From: Candidatus Eiseniibacteriota bacterium
Lineage (GTDB): Bacteria > Eisenbacteria > RBG-16-71-46
Length of the DNA stretch: 64,000 bases
NCBI GenBank assembly: GCA_038231135.1
Contig: JBBRLX010000001.1
Coordinates: 192,001-256,000, forward strand
Direction of reading: 5' to 3'
Below, one piece after another: positions 13,849-56,383 of this stretch (the stretch's first letter is position 1; each line of letters starts with the position of its first letter). The notes beneath the pieces are model-generated. The model was not told the origin of the DNA. It was given only the letters and a program-made list of their open reading frames with translations, and did not search any database. Both the position numbers and the translations under genes were made by a program.

Positions 13849-15695
13849 CGCCGCGGCCACGACAGCGTCCGCCCGTCGCGCCCGTCGCGCCACGGTCGCG
13901 CCATGGATCCGGCGCGGTGTCGCTCGCGCTCGCCGGCGGCATCCTGCTCGTGCACTGGCTGCACGCGTTGCGCGTGCCGTTCATCAACGACGACTACGTG
14001 TTCCTGGACATGGTGCGCGACCGGGCGTTCGCGTCGCTGTGGGGAACGTCGCGGCTGATGTTCGGGTGGTGGCGGCCGGTGTCACGCGAGTTCCACTACT
14101 GGGCGCTCGAACGCACGATCGGCGCGCGCGAGCTGCCGTTCCATGTCGCGAGCCTGCTGCTGGCGCTCGCGGTGCTCGCCGTCTACTACCGCCTCGCCCG
14201 CCGCCTCGCCGGCGCGCGTGCCGCGGCGATCGCATCGGCGGGGGTGGCGGTGATGGCGGCGTGGGCCGTGCCGATGGTGTGGGTCGCCGGCGCCCAGGAG
14301 TTGTGGATGCTGCTGTTCGCGCTGCTGTGTATCGACGCGTTCGCGTTCGGCAGCGTGTGGATCGCGGCGCCGGCGCTGGCGGTGGCGCTGCTGAGCAAGG
14401 AGACCGCGGCCGTGGTGCCGGGCATCGCACTCGCCGTCGCCATCGCGACCCGCCGGTTCGCGCCGCGTGCCACGCTGCTGCGCGTGCTGCCGCTCGCGGC
14501 CGTGACCGTGGCGTGGGCGCTGGTGCATCCGGCGGTGCGGGCAATGCTGACGGGTGTCGCGCATGGAGCGGGTTCCGCGGACGGCACCACGGTGACCTCA
14601 CCGGCGGCGATCGTGCTGCACACCCTGCGCGTCCCCGTGAACCTCGACCAGCCGCCGGCGCCGGATCACGGCTGGATGAGCGTGCTGGTGCGGGCCGCGC
14701 CATCGATCGTGCTCGTGGTGCTCGCTGTGGTGTGGGCGTTCCGGAACGAACGGCGGGAGGGCGGCGGATCGCCCGCGGCCGGCGCGGGCACCGGCGTGCC
14801 GGCACTCGCCCTGGTGCCAAGGTCCCGCGCGGCGGACATCGTATCGCCCGCGAGTACGGACCCGCGGCCCCTCGACAGCACGCACCTCGCGGCGTGCACG
14901 ATCGTGTGGGCCCTGCTCGGCTGGCTGCCGGTGCTGTGGCCCGCGCTCGGCTGGCACTCGTACTACACGCTGCTCGGCGCATTCGGCGTTTGGTTGCTGG
15001 CGGGTGCTTGGCTCGCGCGCGAGCGCTCGGTCGCGCTCACGGTGCTGATCGCGCTCGCGGTGCTGCGCGCCGGCCAGGCGGCGACGCCGTCGCTCGACTG
15101 GGGCACCGAGTGGTATCAGAACCGCGCCGCCGCGTTCGTGCAGTTCCTGCGCGCCGACCTGCTGCAGCGCGAGCCCCGGCCCGCACCGCACTCACGGTTG
15201 TTCTTCGGAGGTGTGCCGAGCAACGTGGGGTTCCTCACCGCGGGCGCTCCGGCGCTGCGCGTGTGGTACGGCGACAGCACGCTGTCGGGCGGCTACATGT
15301 CGCAATACGCCGCGCGCGGCGCCGGCGCCGCGCCCGGACCGGACCGGTTCTTCCGTTACGACAGCACCGCCGGCTGGGTGGAGCTGCGCACCCTAGACGA
15401 GCCGGCCGCGGCGCGCGCAGAGAATCCGCGCTGGGAGGCGGATCACCGCGAACTCGCGGCGGTGTTCGCCCGCGCGCGCGACTGGACGGCCGCGGCGCAC
15501 GAATACGCAAGGCTTGCGACCGCGGCGGACGCGCCGCTGAAATCCGCGACCGATGCTGGCGTATGCTTCGCGATGGCGGGCGATTCGACCGCCGCCGCCC
15601 GCTGGTTCGCCCTCGCGGCGCGCCAGCCGGGTGCCGATGACGAGGTGAAGGCGTTCGCGCGGCGTTTCGCGCATCATCTGAGCGCCGTGCCCTAG
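13845..15695 (+). CDS. GT-C fold membrane glycosyltransferase, tandem paralog of 12067..13848
   Basis: PFINDD, WWRP, PFHVAS, LLSKE, WHSYYTLLGAFG and FFRYDS are collinear with the upstream paralog. ATGA overlap. Confidence 0.72.
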   Translation: MTPRPRQRPPVAPVAPRSRHGSGAVSLALAGGILLVHWLHALRVPFINDDYVFLDMVRDRAFASLWGTSRLMFGWWRPVSREFHYWALERTIGARELPFHVASLLLALAVLAVYYRLARRLAGARAAAIASAGVAVMAAWAVPMVWVAGAQELWMLLFALLCIDAFAFGSVWIAAPALAVALLSKETAAVVPGIALAVAIATRRFAPRATLLRVLPLAAVTVAWALVHPAVRAMLTGVAHGAGSADGTTVTSPAAIVLHTLRVPVNLDQPPAPDHGWMSVLVRAAPSIVLVVLAVVWAFRNERREGGGSPAAGAGTGVPALALVPRSRAADIVSPASTDPRPLDSTHLAACTIVWALLGWLPVLWPALGWHSYYTLLGAFGVWLLAGAWLARERSVALTVLIALAVLRAGQAATPSLDWGTEWYQNRAAAFVQFLRADLLQREPRPAPHSRLFFGGVPSNVGFLTAGAPALRVWYGDSTLSGGYMSQYAARGAGAAPGPDRFFRYDSTAGWVELRTLDEPAAARAENPRWEADHRELAAVFARARDWTAAAHEYARLATAADAPLKSATDAGVCFAMAGDSTAAARWFALAARQPGADDEVKAFARRFAHHLSAVP

Positions 15696-15760
15696 GTCAC
15701 TGCAATGCAGCCAGTTGGACGAGTGCGGGTCGCGGGCCCGCACGCATCAGGGACGAGCCC

Positions 15761-17359
15761 ATGGGCAAGCTGATCCAGTTCGACGACGAAGCGCGGAATG
15801 CCCTGCGCCGGGGCGTGGACAAGCTGGCGGGCGCGGTGCGCGTCACGCTCGGCCCGCGCGGCCGCAACGTGGTGATCGATCACCGCGACGGCAATCCCAC
15901 GATCACGAACGATGGACTCACGATCGCGCGCGAGATCGAGCTCGAGAATCCCTTCGAGAATATGGGCGCCCAGCTCGTCCGCGAGGTCGCGATCAAGACC
16001 GGCCAGGTCGCGGGCGACGGCACCACCACCGCGACCGTGCTCGCGCACAGCCTGGTGTCACGCGGACTGCAGGCGGTGGCCGCCGGCCACAATCCGATGG
16101 CCGTGAAGCGCGGCATCGACCACGCCGTGGAGGCGGTGGTCGAGGATCTGCGCCGCCAGGCGCGCACCGTGAACAACCGCGCCGACCTGCAGCGCGTGGC
16201 GCGGGTGAGCGCCGGCGACGACACGATCGGCAACATGGTCGCCGACGCGCTCGACCGCGTGGGCGCGAGCGGCGTGATCACGATCGACGAAGGCCGTGGC
16301 ATGACCGACACGCTCGAGGTGGTGGAAGGCGTGCGGTTCGACCACGGCTACCTGTCGCCGTACTTCGTCACCGACGCGGAGAGCATGGAGGTGGTGCTCG
16401 ACAACCCGCTCGTGCTGATCACCGACCTGCGCGTGTCGGCGGCGCAGGAGGTGCTGGGAGTGCTCGAGCACGCCGCCGCCACGCGCCGTCCGCTGCTGGT
16501 GATCGCGGACGACGTCGAGGCCGAGGCGCTTGCCACGCTGGTCGTGAACCGCCTGCGGGGCACGCTGCACTGCGTGGCCGTGCGTGCGCCCGCGAGCGGC
16601 GAGCGGCGCCGCGAGCTGCTGGAGGACCTCGCCGTGCTGACCGGCGCCACGCTGGTGACCCGCGACATGGGCCGCTCGCTGGAACGGTTCCACGCCCCCG
16701 ACCTGGGGCGCGCGAAGCGGGTCGTGGTGGATCACGACTCGACCACGATCATCGAAGGCGGCGGCGACGCCGTGGCGATCCGCGCGCGCGTCGCCGAGCT
16801 GGAGCGCGCGCTCACCGGCGCCGGCACCGACCACGACCGCGAGCTGCTCAGGGAACGCATCGCGCGCCTCACCGGCGGCGTCGCATTGATCCACGTCGGC
16901 GCCGCGAGCGCGCTCGAACTGGCCGAGCGCAAGAACCGGTTCGACGACGCGCTCGCCGCGACGCGCTCGGCCGTGGAGGAGGGCATGCTCACCGGCGGCG
17001 GCGTCGCGCTGCTGCGCGCGCAGAAGTCGCTCGATTCGAGCAAGGCGCGCGGCGACGAGAAGATCGGCTACGACATCGTGCGCCTCGCACTCGAGCAGCC
17101 CACCCGCCAGATCGCGGAGAACGCCGGCGAGCGCGGCGAGGTCGTGGTGGCGCGCACCCGAGAGCAGACCGGCGGATTCGGCTACGACGCGCTGGCCGGC
17201 GTGTACTGCGACCTCGACGCCGCGGGGATCGTCGATCCCGCCAAGGTCACGCGCTGCGCCCTGCAGCACGCCGCGAGCATCGGGACGCTGATGCTCACGA
17301 CCGACGCGATCGTCGTGGATGCGCCGGGCAAGGATGACGAGGGGGGCGGGGAGGAGTGA
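15761..17359 (+). CDS. groL: Chaperonin GroEL (divergent paralog, no adjacent groES)
   Basis: TLGPRGRNV, ITNDG, AGDGTTTAT, GYLSPYF and GIVDPAKVTR motifs. Confidence 0.95.
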   Translation: MGKLIQFDDEARNALRRGVDKLAGAVRVTLGPRGRNVVIDHRDGNPTITNDGLTIAREIELENPFENMGAQLVREVAIKTGQVAGDGTTTATVLAHSLVSRGLQAVAAGHNPMAVKRGIDHAVEAVVEDLRRQARTVNNRADLQRVARVSAGDDTIGNMVADALDRVGASGVITIDEGRGMTDTLEVVEGVRFDHGYLSPYFVTDAESMEVVLDNPLVLITDLRVSAAQEVLGVLEHAAATRRPLLVIADDVEAEALATLVVNRLRGTLHCVAVRAPASGERRRELLEDLAVLTGATLVTRDMGRSLERFHAPDLGRAKRVVVDHDSTTIIEGGGDAVAIRARVAELERALTGAGTDHDRELLRERIARLTGGVALIHVGAASALELAERKNRFDDALAATRSAVEEGMLTGGGVALLRAQKSLDSSKARGDEKIGYDIVRLALEQPTRQIAENAGERGEVVVARTREQTGGFGYDALAGVYCDLDAAGIVDPAKVTRCALQHAASIGTLMLTTDAIVVDAPGKDDEGGGEE

Positions 17360-31514: not shown

Positions 31515-32624
31515 ATGCGCAACGATGCCGCGGTCCGCACCGCCGAGCCGGAGACGGCCGGCAAGATCGCGCCCTGGCCCACCCAGGTGCTCGACGCGCT
31601 GGAACAGGCCGTGGTGGGTCTAGACCGCGAACGGCGTGTGGTCTACAACAACCGCCGCATCGAGGAGTTGCTCGGCATCGAGTCCGGCGCGCTGATCGGC
31701 ACCGCGGGGTCCCGGGTGTTCCCGGGCGCCGACGCACGCTGGCTCAAGGGTGCGTCCCGCGAGACCCGGGACTTCAAGTTCGAAACCGAGGGCCGCGAAC
31801 TGACGCTCAAGGCCGAGGCGCTGCCGATCCGCGACGAGGATGGCGACCTGGTCGGCTCGGTGGTGCTGGCCGAGGCGATCTCCGAGTCCGAGGATGGTGA
31901 ATTCCAGAAGAAGATCGACCGGCTGGTGTCGCTGGGCGAGCTGTCGGCCTACGTGGCGCACGAGATCCGCAACCCGCTGACCGGCATCCGCACCACGGTG
32001 CAGTTCGTGGGCTCCAAGTTCAAGCCCCACGACCCCCGCCGCGAGGACCTGGAAGACGTCATCAAGGAGCTCGACCGCATCGAGCAGATCATCACCGGCC
32101 TGCTGCTGTTCGCGAAGCCACCGGCGGCCCGGCCGCAGCCGTGCGACCTCGAACAGGTGCTCGAGAAGACCCTCGACATGCTCGAGCTCCAGCTCGGGGA
32201 CGCCCAGGTCCAGCTCCACAAGGACTACGCGCCCGACCTGCCGCTGGTCTACGCCGACCCCGACCTGACGCAGCAGGTGTTCCTGAACCTGAGCCTCAAC
32301 GCCGTGCAGGCGATGCCCCAGGGCGGTGAACTCCACGTCACGACCGGGGTGCGGCGCTACCGCACCCGCCGGTCGATGGTGGACGTGTCGTTCCATGACA
32401 CCGGCGTCGGGATTCCGAAGGAGCTGATGGAGAAGGTGTTCGACCCGTTCTTCACCACCCGCTCGATGGGCACCGGGCTCGGCCTGCCGATCTCGGTGCA
32501 GATCGTGCGGGACGTGGGGGGCATGATCACCGCGAAGAACAATCCCAGCGGCGGCGGCGCCACGCTGCGCGTGTCGTTCCCGGTCCCGACCGAACCCACG
32601 GGCCGCACCGAGGAGCTGCCATGA
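31515..32624 (+). CDS. Cytoplasmic PAS-domain sensor histidine kinase (NtrB-like)
   Basis: PAS domain, H-box AHEIRNPL, N-box QVFLNL..NA, DTGVGI and FDPFFTT..GTGLGL; no TM segment. Confidence 0.93.
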   Translation: MRNDAAVRTAEPETAGKIAPWPTQVLDALEQAVVGLDRERRVVYNNRRIEELLGIESGALIGTAGSRVFPGADARWLKGASRETRDFKFETEGRELTLKAEALPIRDEDGDLVGSVVLAEAISESEDGEFQKKIDRLVSLGELSAYVAHEIRNPLTGIRTTVQFVGSKFKPHDPRREDLEDVIKELDRIEQIITGLLLFAKPPAARPQPCDLEQVLEKTLDMLELQLGDAQVQLHKDYAPDLPLVYADPDLTQQVFLNLSLNAVQAMPQGGELHVTTGVRRYRTRRSMVDVSFHDTGVGIPKELMEKVFDPFFTTRSMGTGLGLPISVQIVRDVGGMITAKNNPSGGGATLRVSFPVPTEPTGRTEELP

Positions 32625-34012
32625 AGACCTCGGTGCTGGTCGTCGACGACGAGCTGCTGATCCGAAAGTCGCTGTCCAAGGTGCTGCGGGCCCGCGGGCT
32701 CAAGGTCGAGGTCGCGAGCACCGGGGGCGAGGGCCTCGAGAAGGCCGCCGAAGAGCGGCCCCAGGTCATGATCCTCGACATGCGGCTGCCGGACACCGAC
32801 GGGCTGTCGGTGCTGCGCAAGGTCCGCGAGATGGATCCGCTGCTCCAGGTGATCGTCATCACCGCGTTCGGCGACGTGCAATCGGCGGTGGACGCCATGA
32901 AGCTCGGGGCCTGCGACTTCCTGAGGAAGCCCTACGAGATGGAGGACATCGCGCTGGCGGTGGAGTCGGCGGGCAAGAATTTCCGGCAGGCCAGCGAGCT
33001 CGACCTCTACCGGCGCCAGGCGTGGCGGAACTATTCCGGAGACGAGATCGTCGGGCACTCGGGCAGGATGCGCGAAGTGCGCGGGCTCATCGACAAGGTG
33101 GTGCGCAGCCAGGCCACGTCTGTGCTCATCACCGGCGAGAGCGGGACCGGCAAGGAACTGGTCGCCCGAGCAATTCATTACCGCAGCGACCGCGGAAAAT
33201 CCCCGCTGATGGAGATCAACTGCTCGTCGTTCAACGAGAATCTGCTCGAGAACGAACTGTTCGGCCACGAGCGCGGCGCGTTCACCGATGCCTCGGAGTT
33301 GAAGAAGGGCCTGGTCGAGCTGTGCGATGGGGGCACGCTGTTCCTCGACGAGGTCGCCGACATGCCGCTGCCCACCCAGGCGCGCCTGCTGCGGTTCATC
33401 GATCAGCGGCATTTCAAGCGGGTCGGCGGGGCCGAGGACATCGCGGTCGACATCCGCATCGTCGCCGCCACCAACAAGGATCTCGAGGCCGAGGTGAAGG
33501 CGCTGCGGTTCCGCCACGACCTGTATTTCCGGCTCAAGGTGGTGCGGATCCATCTGCCGCCGCTGCGGGATCGCGGCGACGACGTGCAACTGCTCACCGG
33601 GCACTTCCTGCGGGAGTTCTCGAGGAAGTTCAGCAAGCAATTCACCGAGGTCACCCCCGACGCGCTCGCTCAGATGCGGGCGTACTCGTGGCCGGGTAAC
33701 GTGCGTGAACTGCGTAACGTGATCGAGCGCGTGGCGCTGCTCGAAGAAGGCGAGCGGCTCGAAGCCGAGCATCTGCCGCCCGAAGTGCTGGGTCGCCGCG
33801 CCACGCATACCGATGCATCGACCGATGACTCCGAAGCCATCTCGCTGCGCACGCTCGCGCAGATCGAGGCCGATCACATCAGCGAAGTGCTGCGTCTCAC
33901 CGCGGGAAACAAGAGCCGCGCGTCGAGAATCCTCGGGATCTCCCGCCAGGGATTGATCGAGAAGCTGCGGCGGCTGCGCATGGAAGAAGCCGTCGATCGT
34001 CAAGTATCTTGA
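32621..34012 (+). CDS. Sigma54-dependent response regulator (REC-AAA+-Fis HTH)
   Basis: VVDDE/LDM REC domain, GESGTGKE, ENELFGHERGAFTDA, LFLDE, WPGNVREL and HTH NKSRASRILGISR. Confidence 0.96.
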   Translation: MKTSVLVVDDELLIRKSLSKVLRARGLKVEVASTGGEGLEKAAEERPQVMILDMRLPDTDGLSVLRKVREMDPLLQVIVITAFGDVQSAVDAMKLGACDFLRKPYEMEDIALAVESAGKNFRQASELDLYRRQAWRNYSGDEIVGHSGRMREVRGLIDKVVRSQATSVLITGESGTGKELVARAIHYRSDRGKSPLMEINCSSFNENLLENELFGHERGAFTDASELKKGLVELCDGGTLFLDEVADMPLPTQARLLRFIDQRHFKRVGGAEDIAVDIRIVAATNKDLEAEVKALRFRHDLYFRLKVVRIHLPPLRDRGDDVQLLTGHFLREFSRKFSKQFTEVTPDALAQMRAYSWPGNVRELRNVIERVALLEEGERLEAEHLPPEVLGRRATHTDASTDDSEAISLRTLAQIEADHISEVLRLTAGNKSRASRILGISRQGLIEKLRRLRMEEAVDRQVS

Positions 34013-34222
34013 CACCAGCAACGAAATGGACAGTTGATCGTAAGTGATTGTGGAACAAGCTGATAACTTGAGTGTTCCGCGTAACACAGCACAAAACTAG
34101 ACACTTACAGGTTCTGTCCACCGCGATATCCACACCTGCTCCGCGGCCAGACATCGCCGACCCCGCCTCAAAGCCCACCAATATCAGTCATTTGCGACAT
34201 CCGGTGTTCGTCGATGTGCGAT

Positions 34223-34238
34223 TGGCATGCTACGTGCC
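34223..34238 (+). promoter_or_regulatory. Sigma54 -24/-12 promoter
   Basis: TGGCATGCTACGTGC has GG-N10-GC. An IHF-like TATCAGTCATTTG lies at 34182-34194, with an AT-rich upstream region. Confidence 0.75.
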
Positions 34239-34385
34239 TCTGTATAGATCGAGGCCATGCGGTGCGCTCGGGCGCGCTGCGACGTGGCCGCCCCGGCCGA
34301 GCAGCTCGGCGGCCAATATCAGTGTTGTGGCATGCGTATCAGTCGCGTGCCGATGGTTCGATACCACCGAGGAGGTGATTCTCCG

Positions 34386-34451
34386 ATGCCGGCGAAGAAG
34401 AAGGCCACGAAGAAGAAGGCTGCCAAGAAGGGTGGAAAGAAGAAGAAGTAA
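34386..34451 (+). CDS. 21-aa Lys/Ala-rich basic micropeptide MPAKKKATKKKAAKKGGKKKK
   Basis: Strong SD GGAGGTGA 7 nt upstream; nearly all Lys codons are AAG; own terminator downstream. Confidence 0.8.
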   Translation: MPAKKKATKKKAAKKGGKKKK

Positions 34452-34477
34452 ATTGATTTAGGACCTGGCACGTCCTT

Positions 34478-34520
34478 GGGGATTGGTTGGCGCCTGACGT
34501 CGGCCAATCCCCGTTTTTGT
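34478..34520 (+). terminator. Rho-independent terminator after the micropeptide
   Basis: GGGGATTGGTTGGCG-loop-CGTCGGCCAATCCCC followed by GTTTTTGT. Confidence 0.8.
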
Positions 34521-34534
34521 TCCACGTTGCGAGT

Positions 34535-34697
34535 GCCGGCCGTGTGCGAACGGGATGAAGCACGCAAAGGGAACGTGTTTCGTATCGCCGCACGCCGCTA
34601 CAAAACGACGCAGCTGGAGGCTTTGCGCTAGGGCTGGCCGGTTTTCCTCCAGTTCGTTGCAGCGGCCCGCTCACGGAAGGGCGGGCCGTTTGCGTTT
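34535..34697 (+). ncRNA. Candidate structured non-coding RNA ending in a terminator-like hairpin (strand uncertain)
   Basis: Stems 34555-64/34574-83, 34594-99/34661-66, 34604-08/34654-58 and 34613-20/34646-53. GC hairpin 34662-34689 followed by TTGCGTTT. Confidence 0.4.
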
Positions 34698-34820
34698 CCC
34701 TCCCCGCGTCGCCCCGCCTTGCGCCCTCCGCTATAGTCACGGGTTCCGGCCGCATAGCTCCCGTCGCCAGGAACCGGCAGGCGATCGGGTTCCAACCGCA
34801 GCGCGCGAGAGGACCCTCTT

Positions 34821-37607
34821 GTGAACCCGGCTCCCGGCCGCGACTTCATCCAGGTCCGCGGCGCCCGCCAGCACAACCTCAAGAACCTCGACGTCGACAT
34901 TCCGCGGGGCCGGATCACGGTGATCACCGGCGTTTCGGGGTCGGGCAAGTCGTCGCTCGCGTTCGACACGCTGTACGCCGAGGGCCAGCGCCGCTACGTG
35001 GAGTCGGTGTCCACCTACGCCAAGCAGTATCTCGATCGGCTGCCGCGGCCGGACGTCGACGGGATCGCGGGGCTGACGCCGGCGATCGCCATCCAGCAGC
35101 TCGCGCCGGCGCGCAGCGCCCGTTCGACGGTGGGCACCACGACCGAGCTCTACGACTTCCTGCGCCTGCTGTTCGCGCGGCTCGGGACCGTCCACTGCCC
35201 GGATTGCGACCGCCCGGTGGCGGCGGATTCGCCGGACAGCATCACGCGCGAGTCCGCGGCGTGGCAGCCCGGCGAGCCGGTGATCGTGGTCGCGGCGGTC
35301 ACGCGGCCCGCCGGCATGAGCTGGGAGGAGCACGCCGGTCATCTGCTCAAGGCCGGCTACACGCGCATCCTCTCGAACGACGCGATCACGCCGCTCGATC
35401 CGCTGCCGCGCCTGGGCAAGGCGGAGCGCACCGTGCGCGTGGTGGTCGACCGGTTCACGTGGCAGCCGGGTGAAGCGTCGCGGCTCGCCGAGGCCGCGGA
35501 GGCGGCGTTCCGCCGCGGCGAGGGCCGGCTCGAATTGCGCCATGGCGAGGGTCCGTTCGAGCCGCGCAGCGAGCGCTGGGAGTGTTCCGCATGCGGTGGG
35601 GCCGCGGTGCGGCCAGAGCCGAACCTGTTCTCGTTCAACAGCCCGATCGGCGTGTGCCCGGCGTGCCGCGGCTTCGGCAACGTGCTCACGTTCCAGCGCT
35701 CGCTGATCGTGCCGGATCCGTCGCTCACGCTGCGGGAGGGTGCGATCCGGCCGTGGGCGGGATCGTGGAAGAAGCTATTCTGGCCCCGGGTCGAGAAGCT
35801 CGCCGCCGAGCGCGGGATCGCGCTCGACATGCCGTGGCGCCGGCTGCCCGCGGCGCAGCGCGAGCTGCTGATGGACGGCGGACCCGGCTTCCGCGGCGCG
35901 ATCCCGTTCCTCGAGCGGCTGGCGCAGAAGAGCTACTCCGTCGGCAACCGGTTCGTGGTGAAGAAGTACCAGACCGCGGTGCCGTGCGCCGCGTGCGGCG
36001 GCTCGCGGCTGCGGCCCGAGGCGCTGCGCGTGCGGCTCGGCGGCCGGACGATCGCGGACGTGAACGCGATGACGGTGAGCACGGTGTCGGAGTACTTCGC
36101 GGCGCTGGAGTTCTCGGCGAGCGAGCGCGGGATCGCGGGGCCGGTGCTGAGCGAGCTGGACCACCGGCTCGAGTTCCTGCGGCGCGTCGACCTCGGCTAC
36201 CTCACGCTCGACCGGCTCACGCGCACGCTGTCCGGGGGCGAGGCGCAGCGGATCGAGCTGGCGAATGCGCTGGGCGCGAACCTGGCCGACACGCTCTACG
36301 TCCTCGACGAGCCGACGATCGGCCTGCACCCGCGCGATACCGACCGGCTCACCGCGATCCTGGGCGAGCTCGCCGGCCGCGGCAACACGCTGGTGGTGGT
36401 GGAGCACGAGCCGCGCGTGATGAGCGTGGCCGAGCACGTGATCGACATGGGCCCGGGCGCGGGGGAGCGCGGCGGCGAGATCCTCTACGCCGGTCCTGGC
36501 GGGGCGGCGCTCGCCGCCGCCGCCACGGACACCGCCCGCTACCTGAGGCGCGAGAAGCGCGTCACCCGCAAGCGCGTGACGGGCCAGCCCCGCAAGTTCA
36601 TCACGGTCGAGGGCGCCACCGAGCACAACCTCGAGGACGTCACCGCGCGGTTTCCGCTGGGGCGGCTGACGGCCGTGACCGGCGTATCGGGCTCGGGCAA
36701 GAGCGCGCTGGTCGAGGACGTGCTGTTCCGCGCCGCTCAGGTGGTGTTCGAGGAGCGCGCGCCCGAGCCGCCCGGCGCCCATCGCTCGATCACGGGGCTC
36801 GACGCGCTCGAGCGGGTGGTGATGGTCGACCAGTCGCCGATCGGACGCTCGCCGCGCTCCTGCCCGGTCACCTACCTCGGTGCCTACGCTCCGCTGCGCG
36901 AGATCTACGGGCGCCAGCCGGTCGCGCTCGCGAAGGGTCTCAAGGACGGCGCGTTCTCGTTCAACACCACGGGCGGGCGCTGCGAGACCTGTGAGGGCGC
37001 GGGCTCGGTGACGGTCGAGATGTACTTCCTCGCCGACCTCGTGGTGCCGTGCGAGGACTGCGACGGCGCGCGGTTCCGCCGCGAGGTGCTGGATGTCCGC
37101 TACCGCGGGCTCAACATCCGGCAGGCGCTCGACCTCACCGCCGACCAGGCGTTCGAGCACTTCGCCGCCGAGCCGCGGTTCACGCGCGCGCTCCACATCC
37201 TGCGCCGCGTGGGGCTCGGGTACCTCACGCTCGGCCAGCCGTCGAACCAGCTGTCCGGGGGGGAGGCGCAGCGGCTCAAGATCGCGCGCGAACTGGGTGC
37301 GCGGGGCGCCGGGCCCACGCTCTACCTGCTCGACGAGCCGACCGTCGGACTGCACTGGTCCGACATCCAGCAGCTGCTCACGGTGCTCGACGATCTCGTC
37401 GCGCGCGGCGACACCGTGGTCGTCGTCGAGCACAACCTCGACGTCATCCGAAATTGCGACTGGATCGTGGACCTCGGTCCCGAGGGCGGCGACGGCGGCG
37501 GCCGGCTGATGGCCGAGGGCCCGCCGGAAACGGTCGCCGCGACGCCGGAGTCCTGGACCGGTCGCTACCTGCGCGAGGAGGAGTCGCTGGCGGCGGCGGA
37601 GTCGTAG
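34821..37607 (+). CDS. uvrA: Excinuclease ABC subunit A (divergent paralog-like)
   Basis: GARQHNLKN, two GVSGSGKS Walker A motifs, two LSGGEAQR signatures, LDEPT and CxxC zinc fingers. Confidence 0.93.
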   Translation: MNPAPGRDFIQVRGARQHNLKNLDVDIPRGRITVITGVSGSGKSSLAFDTLYAEGQRRYVESVSTYAKQYLDRLPRPDVDGIAGLTPAIAIQQLAPARSARSTVGTTTELYDFLRLLFARLGTVHCPDCDRPVAADSPDSITRESAAWQPGEPVIVVAAVTRPAGMSWEEHAGHLLKAGYTRILSNDAITPLDPLPRLGKAERTVRVVVDRFTWQPGEASRLAEAAEAAFRRGEGRLELRHGEGPFEPRSERWECSACGGAAVRPEPNLFSFNSPIGVCPACRGFGNVLTFQRSLIVPDPSLTLREGAIRPWAGSWKKLFWPRVEKLAAERGIALDMPWRRLPAAQRELLMDGGPGFRGAIPFLERLAQKSYSVGNRFVVKKYQTAVPCAACGGSRLRPEALRVRLGGRTIADVNAMTVSTVSEYFAALEFSASERGIAGPVLSELDHRLEFLRRVDLGYLTLDRLTRTLSGGEAQRIELANALGANLADTLYVLDEPTIGLHPRDTDRLTAILGELAGRGNTLVVVEHEPRVMSVAEHVIDMGPGAGERGGEILYAGPGGAALAAAATDTARYLRREKRVTRKRVTGQPRKFITVEGATEHNLEDVTARFPLGRLTAVTGVSGSGKSALVEDVLFRAAQVVFEERAPEPPGAHRSITGLDALERVVMVDQSPIGRSPRSCPVTYLGAYAPLREIYGRQPVALAKGLKDGAFSFNTTGGRCETCEGAGSVTVEMYFLADLVVPCEDCDGARFRREVLDVRYRGLNIRQALDLTADQAFEHFAAEPRFTRALHILRRVGLGYLTLGQPSNQLSGGEAQRLKIARELGARGAGPTLYLLDEPTVGLHWSDIQQLLTVLDDLVARGDTVVVVEHNLDVIRNCDWIVDLGPEGGDGGGRLMAEGPPETVAATPESWTGRYLREEESLAAAES

Positions 37608-54949: not shown

Positions 54950-56383
54950 ATGGACATGAAGCCTTCGCTCAATCTGTCGATGCGCCCGGCGCTGATCATG
55001 ACGCCGCGGCTGCAGCAGGCCTTGAAGCTCCTGCAGGTGCCGACGCTCGAGCTCCAGCAGATCCTCAAGCAGGAGATCATGCAGAATCCGCTGCTCGAAG
55101 AGGTGGACGAGATCACCGACAACGAGGATCTCGACCGCGAGGACTCGCCGGAGGAGACCGCGAACGAGGAGGGCGAGACGCCGAGCGAGGAGGATCCGAT
55201 CGACTGGTCGGACTACATGCAGGACGGACTCGACCGCACCTACGTGCCGCAGAGCGAGACCAGCATGGAGTTCCTCGAGAAGGTGCCGGTCACCCGCGGC
55301 ACGCTGGCCGAGAGCCTGATGGAGCAGCTGCACTTCCTGAACCTGCCGCGCGAGCGCATGGCGGTCGCGGAGTTCCTCGTCGGATCGATCGACGACAGCG
55401 GCTGGCTCGCCAGCTCGCTCGACGAGATCTCCGAGGCGATCGGCCGGCCGGTCGAGGACATCGAGCGCGTGCTGTGCGTGATCCAGGCGCTCGAGCCGGT
55501 GGGGGTGGGCGCGCGCAACCTGCGGGAGTGCCTGCTGATCCAGCTCGAGGCGCGCGGCGAGAAGGACACGCTGCCGTGGAAGATCATCCACGACCACTTC
55601 GACCATCTCGTGAACCGGCGGTTCCCCGAGATCGCCCGGCAGCTCAAGTGCACGGCGGAGGACGTCCAGGCCGCCGCCGACGTGATCGCCACGCTGAATC
55701 CGCGCCCCGGCCTGCAGGTGTCGAGCGAGGAGCCCAAGTACGTCACGCCCGACCTGCTCGTCGACCGCGTGGACGAGGAATACGTGGTGGTGCTCAACGA
55801 CCGCCACCTGCCGCGCTTGCGTATCTCGTCGGCATACGAGAGCGTGCTGCGCGAGAAGAAGAAGTCGGAGTCGAACTCGGACGAGCTCAAGACGCGCGAG
55901 TACATCCAGGGCAAGCTGAATTCGGCGCGCTGGCTGATCCAGACCATCGAACAGCGCCGCAAGACGATGATCAAGGTGATGAGCTGCATCATCCGCGAAC
56001 AGCGCGAGTTCTTCGACAAGGGGATCGCGTTCCTGAGGCCGCTCACGCTGCAGCAGGTCGCGCGGCAGATCGACATGCACGAGTCGACGGTCAGCCGGGT
56101 GTGCAGCGGCAAGTACGTCCAGACGCCGCGCGGCGTGTTCGAGCTCAAGTTCTTCTTCTCGAGCGGGCTCGAGACCGAGGACGGCGAGGACGTGTCGGCG
56201 CGCTCGGCCAAGAACATCATCAAGACGCTCATCGACGAGGAGGAGAAGCGCAGTCCGCTGTCCGACGACGCAATCGCGAAGAAGCTGCACGAGAAGGGCC
56301 TCAAAATCGCCCGCCGCACGGTGGCAAAGTACCGTGAACAGCTCAATATCCTGCCGGCGCGGTTTCGCCGGCGGGTCGCCTGA
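54950..56383 (+). CDS. rpoN: RNA polymerase sigma-54 factor
   Basis: TPRLQQALKLLQ, PVGVGARNLRECL, MHESTVSR and RpoN box ARRTVAKYRE. Confidence 0.98.
   Translation: MDMKPSLNLSMRPALIMTPRLQQALKLLQVPTLELQQILKQEIMQNPLLEEVDEITDNEDLDREDSPEETANEEGETPSEEDPIDWSDYMQDGLDRTYVPQSETSMEFLEKVPVTRGTLAESLMEQLHFLNLPRERMAVAEFLVGSIDDSGWLASSLDEISEAIGRPVEDIERVLCVIQALEPVGVGARNLRECLLIQLEARGEKDTLPWKIIHDHFDHLVNRRFPEIARQLKCTAEDVQAAADVIATLNPRPGLQVSSEEPKYVTPDLLVDRVDEEYVVVLNDRHLPRLRISSAYESVLREKKKSESNSDELKTREYIQGKLNSARWLIQTIEQRRKTMIKVMSCIIREQREFFDKGIAFLRPLTLQQVARQIDMHESTVSRVCSGKYVQTPRGVFELKFFFSSGLETEDGEDVSARSAKNIIKTLIDEEEKRSPLSDDAIAKKLHEKGLKIARRTVAKYREQLNILPARFRRRVA

Follow-up and report, generated by a model that had tools for sequence, protein, structure and literature searches.

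The GlmY transcript is non-coding, and GlrK is a sensor in the membrane. In the described circuit GlrK/GlrR (QseE/QseF)-glmY, a sigma54 promoter served by IHF and by a two-component enhancer-binding protein (bEBP) with three upstream sites yields a small transcript (PMC3045617), and the locus studied here parallels this arrangement, with a candidate IHF site. NtrB/NtrC and AtoS/AtoC share its layout of a PAS-HisKA-HATPase kinase and a REC-AAA+-HTH regulator. As for the product, Chlamydia Hc2 (HctB; PF07382, NF038052) and the Burkholderia-type H1-like protein (NF038053) consist of short Lys/Ala/Arg/Thr/Val repeats with no folded domain, as is the case here. HctB is reported to condense nucleic acids (PMC10597470). 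In two reports, hctB is transcribed by sigma28, with no sigma54 promoter and an indirect response only to CtcC (PMC7482065, PMC12282069); the peptide gene here, in contrast, lies directly behind a bEBP and a −24/−12 box. Finally, mycobacterial MDP1/HupB and Pseudomonas AlgP carry PAKK/KPAA-type disordered polycations, reported to serve DNA compaction or polyphosphate (polyP) spacing (PMC5974015, PMC9239181). These are long tails on folded domains, whereas the 21-mer described here is free-standing.

The window is a stretch of 64,000 nt from Candidatus Eiseniibacteriota (RBG-16-71-46; GCA_038231135.1, JBBRLX010000001.1, 192,001-256,000), and coordinates count from its first letter. The region in focus is 31515-34520 (Table 1). 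It was compared with 25 same-family loci from relatives in Candidatus Eisenbacteria. A first-pass annotation of this DNA had listed a soluble PAS kinase, a REC-AAA+-HTH regulator, a palindrome, an IHF-like site, a promoter, a Shine-Dalgarno sequence (SD), an ORF and a hairpin, and every one was located. The search in relatives that it proposed recovered the ORF, the SD and the −24/−12 box (relaxed pattern) in 25/25 same-family loci, and synteny of kinase, bEBP, promoter and peptide in 24/25. That annotation was silent on activator-like sites 2 and 3, a 5' hairpin that covaries, a structured leader of about 137 nt and a 15-nt element past the stop codon.

Table 1. Features of the cassette and its surroundings, numbered from the first letter of the window.
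Feature	Position	Strand	Basis or remark
Soluble PAS-HisKA-HATPase histidine kinase, 369 aa	31515..32624	+	Pfam; NtrB/AtoS-like architecture
REC-AAA+-HTH enhancer-binding response regulator, 463 aa	32621..34012	+	Pfam REC, Sigma54_activat, AAA lid, HTH_8
Activator-like site 1, CGTCAAGTATCTTGACA (YGTC-N9-GACA), over regulator stop	33998..34014	.	Family conservation
Activator-like site 2, right half GGACA conserved	34016..34032	.	Alignment; 21/22 among loci listed
Activator-like site 3, right half TAGACA then CTTA	34087..34103	.	Alignment; 21/22 among loci listed
IHF/HU-like site, TATCAGTCATTTG	34182..34194	+	Consensus match
Sigma54 −24/−12 promoter, TGGCATGCTACGTGC, TGGCA-N7-TGC (GG-N10-GC)	34223..34237	+	Predicted +1 near 34249
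Two predicted 5'-leader hairpins	34252-34289, 34295-34314	+	Covariation of hairpin 1
Extended SD, GAGGAGGTGAT	34369..34379	+	Complements 3' end of the genome's 16S
21-aa ORF, MPAKKKATKKKAAKKGGKKKK, 12 Lys, no acidic residue	34387..34452	+	Conserved ORF
15-nt element, GGACCTGGCACGTCC, just before terminator stem	34461..34475	+	Exact in 25/25 same-family loci
GC-rich 16-bp hairpin and T run, intrinsic terminator or 3' stabilising stem	34477..34520	+	Fold
Second GC-rich hairpin, then TTTGCGTTT, possible back-up terminator	34662..34689	+	Fold in window sequence
uvrA-like gene, downstream neighbour, not argued as part of the circuit	34821..37607	+	Pfam

The signalling architecture of the cassette is textbook. 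With moderate confidence, we read the sequence as pointing to a soluble PAS kinase and a sigma54 activator that would switch on one adjoining short transcript for a non-specific, H1-tail-like, DNA-condensing polycation. The peptide ORF, in the same cassette order, is present in 64/66 loci with at least 600 nt after the regulator. Of the metagenome loci found by motif, 47 have a Lys-rich ORF and at least 1 kb upstream, and all 47 carry the bEBP. Locus L018, of the same family, has promoter and peptide with no adjoining regulator; at L102 the regulator is present and no peptide lies within 2 kb. Only paralogue-level regulator matches were seen in 12/121 genomes, and viral contigs gave no match.

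The kinase contains PAS, HisKA and HATPase_c domains by Pfam, with His149 inside an AHEIRNP motif, and its predicted start at 31515 is based on a GGAGG upstream. No hydrophobic or transmembrane segment was found in it (maximum 19-aa Kyte-Doolittle mean 1.14). For the PAS ligand there were generic matches alone, with no cofactor assigned. The regulator start overlaps the kinase stop (ATGA). The regulator has the receiver residue Asp53, the motifs GESGTGKE, GAFTDA and LFLDE, and a PF00158 match (E 2.7e-65) with Walker A/B and a GAFTGA-type loop. GAFTDA is among the loop variants listed as retaining activation (PMC4641369), and one study reports a failed sigma54 pull-down with a GAFTDA activator (PMC10714721). 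The genome has rpoN and three HU/IHF genes.

NtrB/NtrC and AtoS/AtoC models give the top NCBIfam matches, and the pair scores under every equivalog cut-off (AtoS 264/646, the top match of the kinase; AtoC 448/714; NtrC 411/559; NtrB 111/240). The GlrR model gives 307 against a cut-off of 763. Unlike GlrK, the kinase here is soluble, and unlike glmY the transcript encodes a conserved peptide. The pair differs from NtrB/NtrC and AtoS/AtoC in site and target, and its regulator orthologues form a single phylum-wide clade, separate from the four paralogues in the window's genome.

The DNA between regulator and promoter is AT-rich, as first described, with 52% GC overall and 44% in its first 100 nt, where the genome as a whole has 69%. 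The palindrome reported over the regulator stop was also found: GTCAAG-TAT-CTTGAC (33999-34013) spans the TGA and is the core of site 1, whose 17-mer keeps at least 14/17 identical positions in 24/25 same-family loci. With a leave-out matrix site 1 scores 30.8 and the genome runner-up 16.5, so that the genome has no comparable site elsewhere. The three conserved candidate activator sites precede the −24 GG by 226, 208 and 137 nt, all within 100-250 nt of the promoter. YGTC-N9-GACA with at most one mismatch occurs in 20/21 other-order loci, a count that carries no chance control.

The promoter proposed earlier, with correct −24/−12 spacing, is upheld by its strict pattern in 22/25 same-family loci and its relaxed pattern in all 25. 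It appears in 14/21 other-order loci, and most others carry TGG[A/C][A/C]C-N6-TG variants by eye. The IHF-like site is present as described and its conservation is partial: the strict consensus occurs in 1/25 loci, and a relaxed core, CAR-N4-TTR, loosened after viewing the alignment, in 14/25 at the same offset and at no other tested offset. When 34013-34386 was dinucleotide-shuffled 2000 times, 1.4% of the shuffled sequences had the promoter pattern and 0.55% the IHF pattern, and none had the two at the correct spacing. For these predicted features, conservation is stronger evidence than the shuffles.

A structured leader of about 137 nt separates promoter and ORF. The leader is specific to the family, where it measures 78-143 nt, and other families carry a receiver gene in its place. 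Across the 20/25 leaders aligned, both sides of hairpin 1 change in 8/8 pairs, and 86% of cells are paired, compared with 74% when shuffled and 29-47% when slid. The SD core GGAGGTGAT is identical in 20/20 aligned leaders, which, with the 16S complementarity, confirms the strong SD noted earlier. A 64-aa upstream extension from ATG 34257 was rejected, and the ORF start is fixed, because 21/25 leaders have an in-frame stop upstream. The leaders showed no conserved uORF and no SD-sequestering helix.

The variation in the peptide ORF, which is kept in 25/25 same-family loci, is of coding type. Entropy by codon position is 0.22/0.36/0.50 (16 loci). The Lys codon AAA is used in 0/318 cases in the peptide and 22/399 in the adjoining regulator, and the Ala codon GCT in 44/139 and 16/865. 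AAA does occur in AT-richer orthologues (27/64 and 4/9 Lys codons). Consecutive AAA codons are reported to cause ribosome sliding (PMC4363877). The idea of a real small Lys-rich ORF behind a sigma54-type promoter, with 12/21 Lys, is borne out by these data. So is its expected escape from gene callers, since a collection of 15 billion gene calls contained none of the 7 peptide sequences checked against it.

Over 25 distinct peptides the composition is 61% K and 27% A, and 18/25 are 21-22 aa long. Arg is absent from the window peptide, makes up 1.2% across the family and reaches about 28% in some long forms. Protamines are defined by Arg-rich clusters; the earlier term protamine-like does not suit this Lys/Ala-based peptide. 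As in H1-like proteins, the repeats of the peptides are short and rich in Lys and Ala, and acidic residues are nearly absent (0-1 in 16 other-order forms parsed). The proposed H1/Hc2 likeness holds for the composition of the longer orthologues and fails on family cut-offs. HC2/H1-like models match long forms weakly (2/4 by Pfam, 3/7 by NCBIfam) at 18-23 bits, with 22.8 at the top and cut-offs of 40, 80 and 135 (PF07382, NF038052, NF038053), and these matches may be compositional. The 21-mer and short forms had no match in Pfam (0/1) or NCBIfam (0/6). The ESM Atlas gave unnamed low-complexity clusters plus one 23% HC2 cluster, and nothing else.

A DNA ligand is consistent with the reported enrichment of Lys-rich low-complexity regions in DNA-binding proteins (PMC6821194) and with DNA compaction driven by the MDP1/HupB tail (PMC5974015). 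The same source also places poly-Lys regions in RNA binding (PMC6821194), and a length held at 21-22 aa would suit a charge-neutralising or hibernation-like factor that binds RNA or ribosomes and not DNA. We find this rather unlikely: orthologues with permuted repeats of more than 200 aa fit poorly to a defined ribosomal site, the peptide has no conserved aromatic or Arg residue, and no ribosomal-protein family matched. Very small basic ribosomal proteins do have similar size and Lys content. Composition alone cannot separate DNA from RNA or polyphosphate as ligand.

The H1-like tail of AlgP, of similar KPAA-type composition, is reported to position polyP granules (PMC9239181). A role of the peptide in organising condensates of polyP or another polyanion nevertheless appears improbable, given that a search for PPK1 (PF02503) alone did not find it in the 93% complete genome and that the cassette holds no polyP gene. 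Poly-lysine antimicrobials are likewise short and cationic. An antimicrobial or envelope polycation acting at the membrane or outside the cytoplasm is very improbable here, where the cassette shows no signal peptide, hydrophobic face, transporter, protease or immunity gene. Against the DNA-condensing reading, the 21-mer falls well short in length of the H1-like condensers described in the cited literature.

Outside the window's family the cassette takes another form. In a sample of other families, the order kinase-bEBP-REC was found in 21/21 loci, with a lone single-domain receiver gene between the promoter and the Lys-rich gene in all of them. A Lys-rich ORF follows in 20/21, and the remaining locus stops at the contig edge. 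The receiver gene was sought elsewhere in the window's genome and not found, the best matches being 31-40%. It is judged from these comparisons to have been lost in the window's family, which makes the peptide-only state derived. The lone receiver is likely a phosphate sink or a second output. The circuit had been called dedicated to the peptide; this is true of the derived state in the window's family only, because elsewhere the receiver intervenes. Across the phylum the peptide slot holds permuted Lys/Ala pentapeptide repeats of 13 to more than 200 aa. This varying length and repeat order, with Lys/Arg exchange, would favour bulk charge over a shaped pocket.

The 15-nt element starts 6-16 nt past the stop codon and is exact in 63/64 loci, amid varying flanks. 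It occurs once in the window's genome, and another family has a second form, GGATTGGGCACGTCC. Of the 16 sequences that a degenerate pattern admitted, only 2 follow the peptide, at 71 and 32 of 103 loci. A looser pattern overcounts, matching 37/41 f18 genomes, of which 28 have the true element. Exact or near 15-mers at 8 other places (L041-L048) had no cassette gene nearby. The conservation of the element exceeds that of the peptide, a difference for which a pure condenser model gives no reason. The element likely acts at the RNA level, through stability or protein binding.

These counts and the covarying 5' hairpin speak for a dual-function transcript whose RNA is a co-equal or the main output, with the invariant 3' element binding a protein or pairing with a target. 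GlrK/GlrR-glmY is a precedent for a sigma54 two-component system driving an adjoining small RNA (PMC3045617), as are Desulfovibrio bEBPs with downstream ncRNAs (PMC4641369). Even so, we regard this as an unlikely account. The element is unrecognisable in most long-form families while the Lys-rich gene persists, which leaves the protein as the constant component. The predicted 4-bp hairpin of the element is weak, with mean pairing of 0.58 locally and lower in the whole transcript. Rfam over 33800-35000 gave at best 18.3 bits (E 0.41), under the gathering score, and Hfq was not found in the 93% complete genome. In the target search the longest rRNA complement was 8 nt and no conserved cis partner appeared; genome complements of 11-12 nt were not evidently at gene starts. 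The glnA-derived sRNA is reportedly a 3'-UTR-derived small RNA (PMC9731577). Such RNAs likewise have a conserved segment that lies past the stop codon and ahead of the terminator of an mRNA; for the one here, neither Hfq nor a target was found.

Other roles for the element were rejected. For a second sigma54 promoter or −24 decoy, GC is missing at −12, and TGGCAC is absent from the form in the other family. The idea of an SOS box serving uvrA was discarded since the position follows the stop codon and the uvrA distance varies, and a readthrough signal since the stop distance shifts out of frame. Pairing with 16S covers 8 nt only, within chance, and the complement C3 lies inside an apparent coding region. 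As for a CsrB-like sponge, csrA is in the genome, yet the transcript has about four GGA only.

The terminator stem is predicted at −24 to −34 kcal/mol in 25/25 loci, and in 9/25 the 10 nt that follow contain at least 5 T. By themselves, terminator-like matches are no more frequent than chance predicts (2 in 5.5 kb, with 2.4 expected). In 4/4 runs, which were chosen using the window stretch, the small gene is covered by RNA-library contigs from a relative with 94-98% identity, and contigs extend 60-105 nt beyond the first hairpin. The intrinsic terminator described earlier is there as hairpin and T run, although it may be leaky. No contig starts upstream of 34269, and assembled contigs cannot map a start. 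Enhancer bins 33839-34172 had no cover in the four runs, which by itself proves nothing. In run X2, infB-pnp control pieces (155-279 nt, 96-99% alike) had depth 2.5-4.5, and the peptide contig had 25. Since genes cannot be ranked by contig depth, these values are not read as expression levels.

Contigs crossing the hairpin, and uvrA downstream in 23/25 family loci, would also suit a non-functional ORF or a promoter that serves uvrA. This is scarcely probable in view of the invariant SD, the codon-position pattern and the phylum-wide retention. Furthermore, uvrA lies 0.16-2.7 kb off and was not seen beside many other-order loci.

In the favoured mechanism of a DNA-condensing polycation, His149 would hand phosphate to Asp53, the regulator would bind the three YGTC-N9-GACA-type sites, and IHF or HU would bend the DNA between sites and promoter. 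Sigma54 polymerase would initiate near 34249. An mRNA of about 270 nt, guarded by its 5' and 3' hairpins, would be translated from the perfect SD, and the 21-residue Lys/Ala peptide is predicted to bind and compact the chromosome non-specifically; the first-pass annotation suggested dormancy as one setting for such condensation. More tentatively, and at low probability, the cassette might be a phylum-wide chromatin-state switch. It would induce an H1-tail mimic pared to 13-22 residues in several families, where short-peptide transcripts add an Hfq-independent 3' RNA output replacing the receiver or beside it.

If true, the cassette would combine a sigma54 transcript of dual function with a bacterial chromatin condenser that is very small and under signal control. 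As an RNA motif, the invariant 3' element is an orphan, though well defined. The phylum is uncultured, yet all parts can be synthesised or expressed in E. coli, and the series of 13 to more than 200 residues at one orthologous position offers a test of the H1-like tail length needed for condensation. Should the peptide compact DNA, nucleoid state would come under direct two-component control, through a tiny gene that escapes annotation.

The cassette is conserved among relatives. In the 25 loci read from the window's own family of Candidatus Eisenbacteria (this genome and 24 others), the synteny that the first-pass annotation had proposed for checking was recovered. A Lys/Ala ORF of 17-27 aa lies behind GGAGGTGAT in all 25, the -24/-12 box fits the relaxed pattern in 25 and the strict one in 22, and the regulator adjoins in 24. 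At one locus (L018) the cassette is apparently split: site, promoter and peptide are present, but no regulator adjoins them. A 661-nt cassette stretch matches 39 of 41 genomes. A second set, overlapping the first, held 80 loci, of which 66 were usable (8 lacked the regulator end and 6 had <600 nt beyond it), with the peptide in 64 and the promoter pattern in 63. Locus L146 has no peptide, with only 867 nt of flank; L102 has kinase and regulator, no promoter and no peptide within 2 kb, again apparently split.

Features of the cassette and RNA contigs that match it
Feature	Position	Strand	Basis or remark
Soluble PAS kinase	31515-32624	+	sequence reading
REC-AAA+-HTH regulator (bEBP)	32621-34012	+	domain search
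Sigma54-type promoter, GG-N10-GC	34223-34237	+	sequence pattern
21-codon Lys-rich ORF with SD	window cassette	+	12 Lys, no acidic residue
Second hairpin	34662-34689	+	folding
RNA contig 1	34269-34625		16 differences in 357
RNA contig 2	34327-34579		8 differences in 253
RNA contig 3	34410-34618		5 differences in 209
RNA contig 4	34293-34449		4 differences in 157

Judged by its sequence, the small ORF behaves like a coding gene. Variation at codon positions 1, 2 and 3 is 0.22, 0.36 and 0.50 bits (16 loci, non-independent kin). Lysine is encoded by AAG in 318/318 cases, against 377/399 in the adjacent regulator (also non-independent kin), and GCT is enriched relative to that regulator; AAA does occur in AT-richer orthologues. 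That the ORF has no function seems very improbable. A conserved longer protein extending upstream was rejected because 21/25 leaders carry an in-frame stop. None of seven peptide sequences is present in a collection of 15 billion gene calls, subject to its length floor and start-codon handling.

All features listed earlier are found in the sequence (kinase, regulator, palindrome over the regulator's stop codon, IHF-like 13-mer, promoter, SD, ORF, hairpin with T run), but two further activator-like sites, a leader hairpin and a 3' element had been overlooked. Correctly spaced promoter and IHF patterns arose in 0/2000 spacer shuffles. Alignment of the window-family loci makes the palindrome the first of three YGTC-N9-GACA-type sites upstream of the promoter. 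With a matrix trained on 22 loci, the window's genus left out, this site scores 30.8 and the runner-up in the genome 16.5. Of the 26 matches, just one besides it has a promoter close by, a weak one; the regulator therefore likely has one strong target in this genome. The IHF-like site keeps a relaxed core at the same offset in 14/25 loci, but the exact consensus in only one. Two contigs (G000:C29:58230/58266 and C32:51242/51278) carry the same pair of enhancer-like 17-mers at a distance of 36 nt, probably as part of a repeated element; the promoter scan found no promoter near them.

Searches of this genome found rpoN, three HU/IHF genes and ~20 full-length bEBP domains. The rpoN gene (Sigma54_DBD match) lies ~21 kb downstream of the cassette, at about 55900-56370. 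Among the best 80 relatives of the kinase, most bear the title Candidatus Eisenbacteria, and the remainder are uncultured or otherwise labelled bins. One of two uvrA paralogues (46% identical; the other on G000:C7) lies at 34821-37607, downstream of the cassette; it has this place in most of the window's order and also in certain others. On G000:C29 (about 15580-16050), an HU/IHF gene is directly followed by a short basic ORF with the C-terminal sequence ...LRKNRHKKRIR, which resembles bS22/mS38-type small ribosomal proteins.

All four soil metatranscriptome runs returned for 33900-34900 (two studies) have a contig covering the small gene; these assembled contigs, from a close relative and retrieved using the window stretch, place the stretch in RNA libraries but say nothing of strand, start or level. 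The cassette is real, conserved and probably expressed. The proposed intrinsic terminator has its hairpin and T run, but termination at 34520 is doubtful, since three of the four contigs extend beyond this first hairpin, and only 9/25 loci have a run of ≥5 T behind the stem.

The circuit had been described as dedicated to the peptide, which holds in the window family but not elsewhere in the phylum, where a receiver gene intervenes in 21/21 sampled loci (the best regulator match of 20 of 121 genomes across families, f14 left out, plus L040). All 21 have the order kinase, bEBP, gap, receiver, and in 20 the receiver is followed by an ORF of Lys-rich repeats, 13 to >200 aa long; at the remaining one the contig ends. 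In the two sister families, all 10 loci with enough flank have a single-domain receiver gene placed after the promoter and before the peptide. Twelve of the 121 genomes gave only paralogue-level regulator matches. In a quick tree, 36 cassette regulators form one clade (SH-aLRT 99), separate from four paralogues, and the receiver-less family (100) pairs with a receiver-bearing sister family (97); receiver loss is therefore likely derived. Very long Lys-rich cassette ORFs at L063 and L066 are broken or contain N runs, probably from assembly trouble in repeats. Two Lys-rich ORFs lie outside cassettes. One, of 25 aa (L039, G040:C251 near 17200), is in a genome whose cassette protein (L040) has 101 aa. 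The other, of 40 aa and Lys/Ala/Val-rich (L031, G025:C10 near 45700), is the second such ORF there, with SD and terminator-like stem and without the 3' element; it lies ~2.2 kb after another bEBP-like match, directly behind another Lys-rich coding stretch.

The leader (78-143 nt in the window family) starts with a hairpin whose two sides vary in 8/8 pairs (in 20 of the 25 leaders, without the five that were short or most divergent); the whole-leader folding z-score is below -2 in only 5/25. Two sequences, AATATCAGT and TGGCATGC (34178-34188, 34314-34336), are each repeated within the leader (CCAATATCAGTGTTGTGGCATGC), a repetition not seen conserved in relatives. After the stop codon, GGACCTGGCACGTCC is exact in 25/25 window-family loci, 63/64 peptide-bearing loci of the second set, 8/9 loci of family f3 (one of the nine, L026, is from unpublished genome G026, on which no conclusion depends by itself) and 0/3 of f2, which carry a shorter variant. 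Family f18 has GGATTGGGCACGTCC instead (28/41 genomes). A degenerate metagenome scan, requiring one Lys codon plus stop and covering 24/64 parts, gave at least 119 loci. Among those listed, 103 follow a Lys-rich ORF, and of the 16 sequences allowed they show just GGACCTGGCACGTCC and GGATTGGGCACGTCC; all 47 of these with ≥1 kb upstream have a bEBP. Such constancy could suggest an RNA element as co-output of the transcript, which we consider unlikely: the 3' hairpin is weak, most long-form families show no recognisable copy of the element, and we found no Rfam family for the transcript, Hfq in the genome or target of the element.

We instead hold, with roughly even confidence, that the peptide is a bulk-charge polycation acting on a polyanion, most likely DNA. 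Bulk charge is favoured because orthologues can differ >15-fold in length, shuffle their repeats and swap Lys and Arg; DNA is favoured by comparison with Hc2 and the tail of MDP1/HupB (PMC10597470, PMC5974015). Binding to RNA or the ribosome would be another use of such charge, though an improbable one; polyP is less probable still, as PPK1 was not found in the genome search, and an external peptide hardly to be expected. The peptide would be comparable to Hc2/H1-like families in action but falls outside them by family assignment, since its long orthologues resemble their models weakly. Chlamydia offers a parallel to the product but not to the wiring, because hctB is sigma28-driven (PMC7482065, PMC12282069).

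From bEBP biology, a signal would be sensed at the kinase PAS domain and phosphate would pass from His149 to regulator Asp53. The regulator would bind the three candidate sites, IHF/HU would loop the DNA, and sigma54 initiation near 34249 would yield a short, protected mRNA from which the peptide would be strongly translated; the peptide may then act by its charge, most likely on DNA. No paper on the cassette or 3' element was among the top-ranked open-access matches. Sigma54 two-component wiring is itself standard; the literature searched does not describe the output it would drive here, a minimal H1-like polycation that stands alone and comes with an orphan 3' element.
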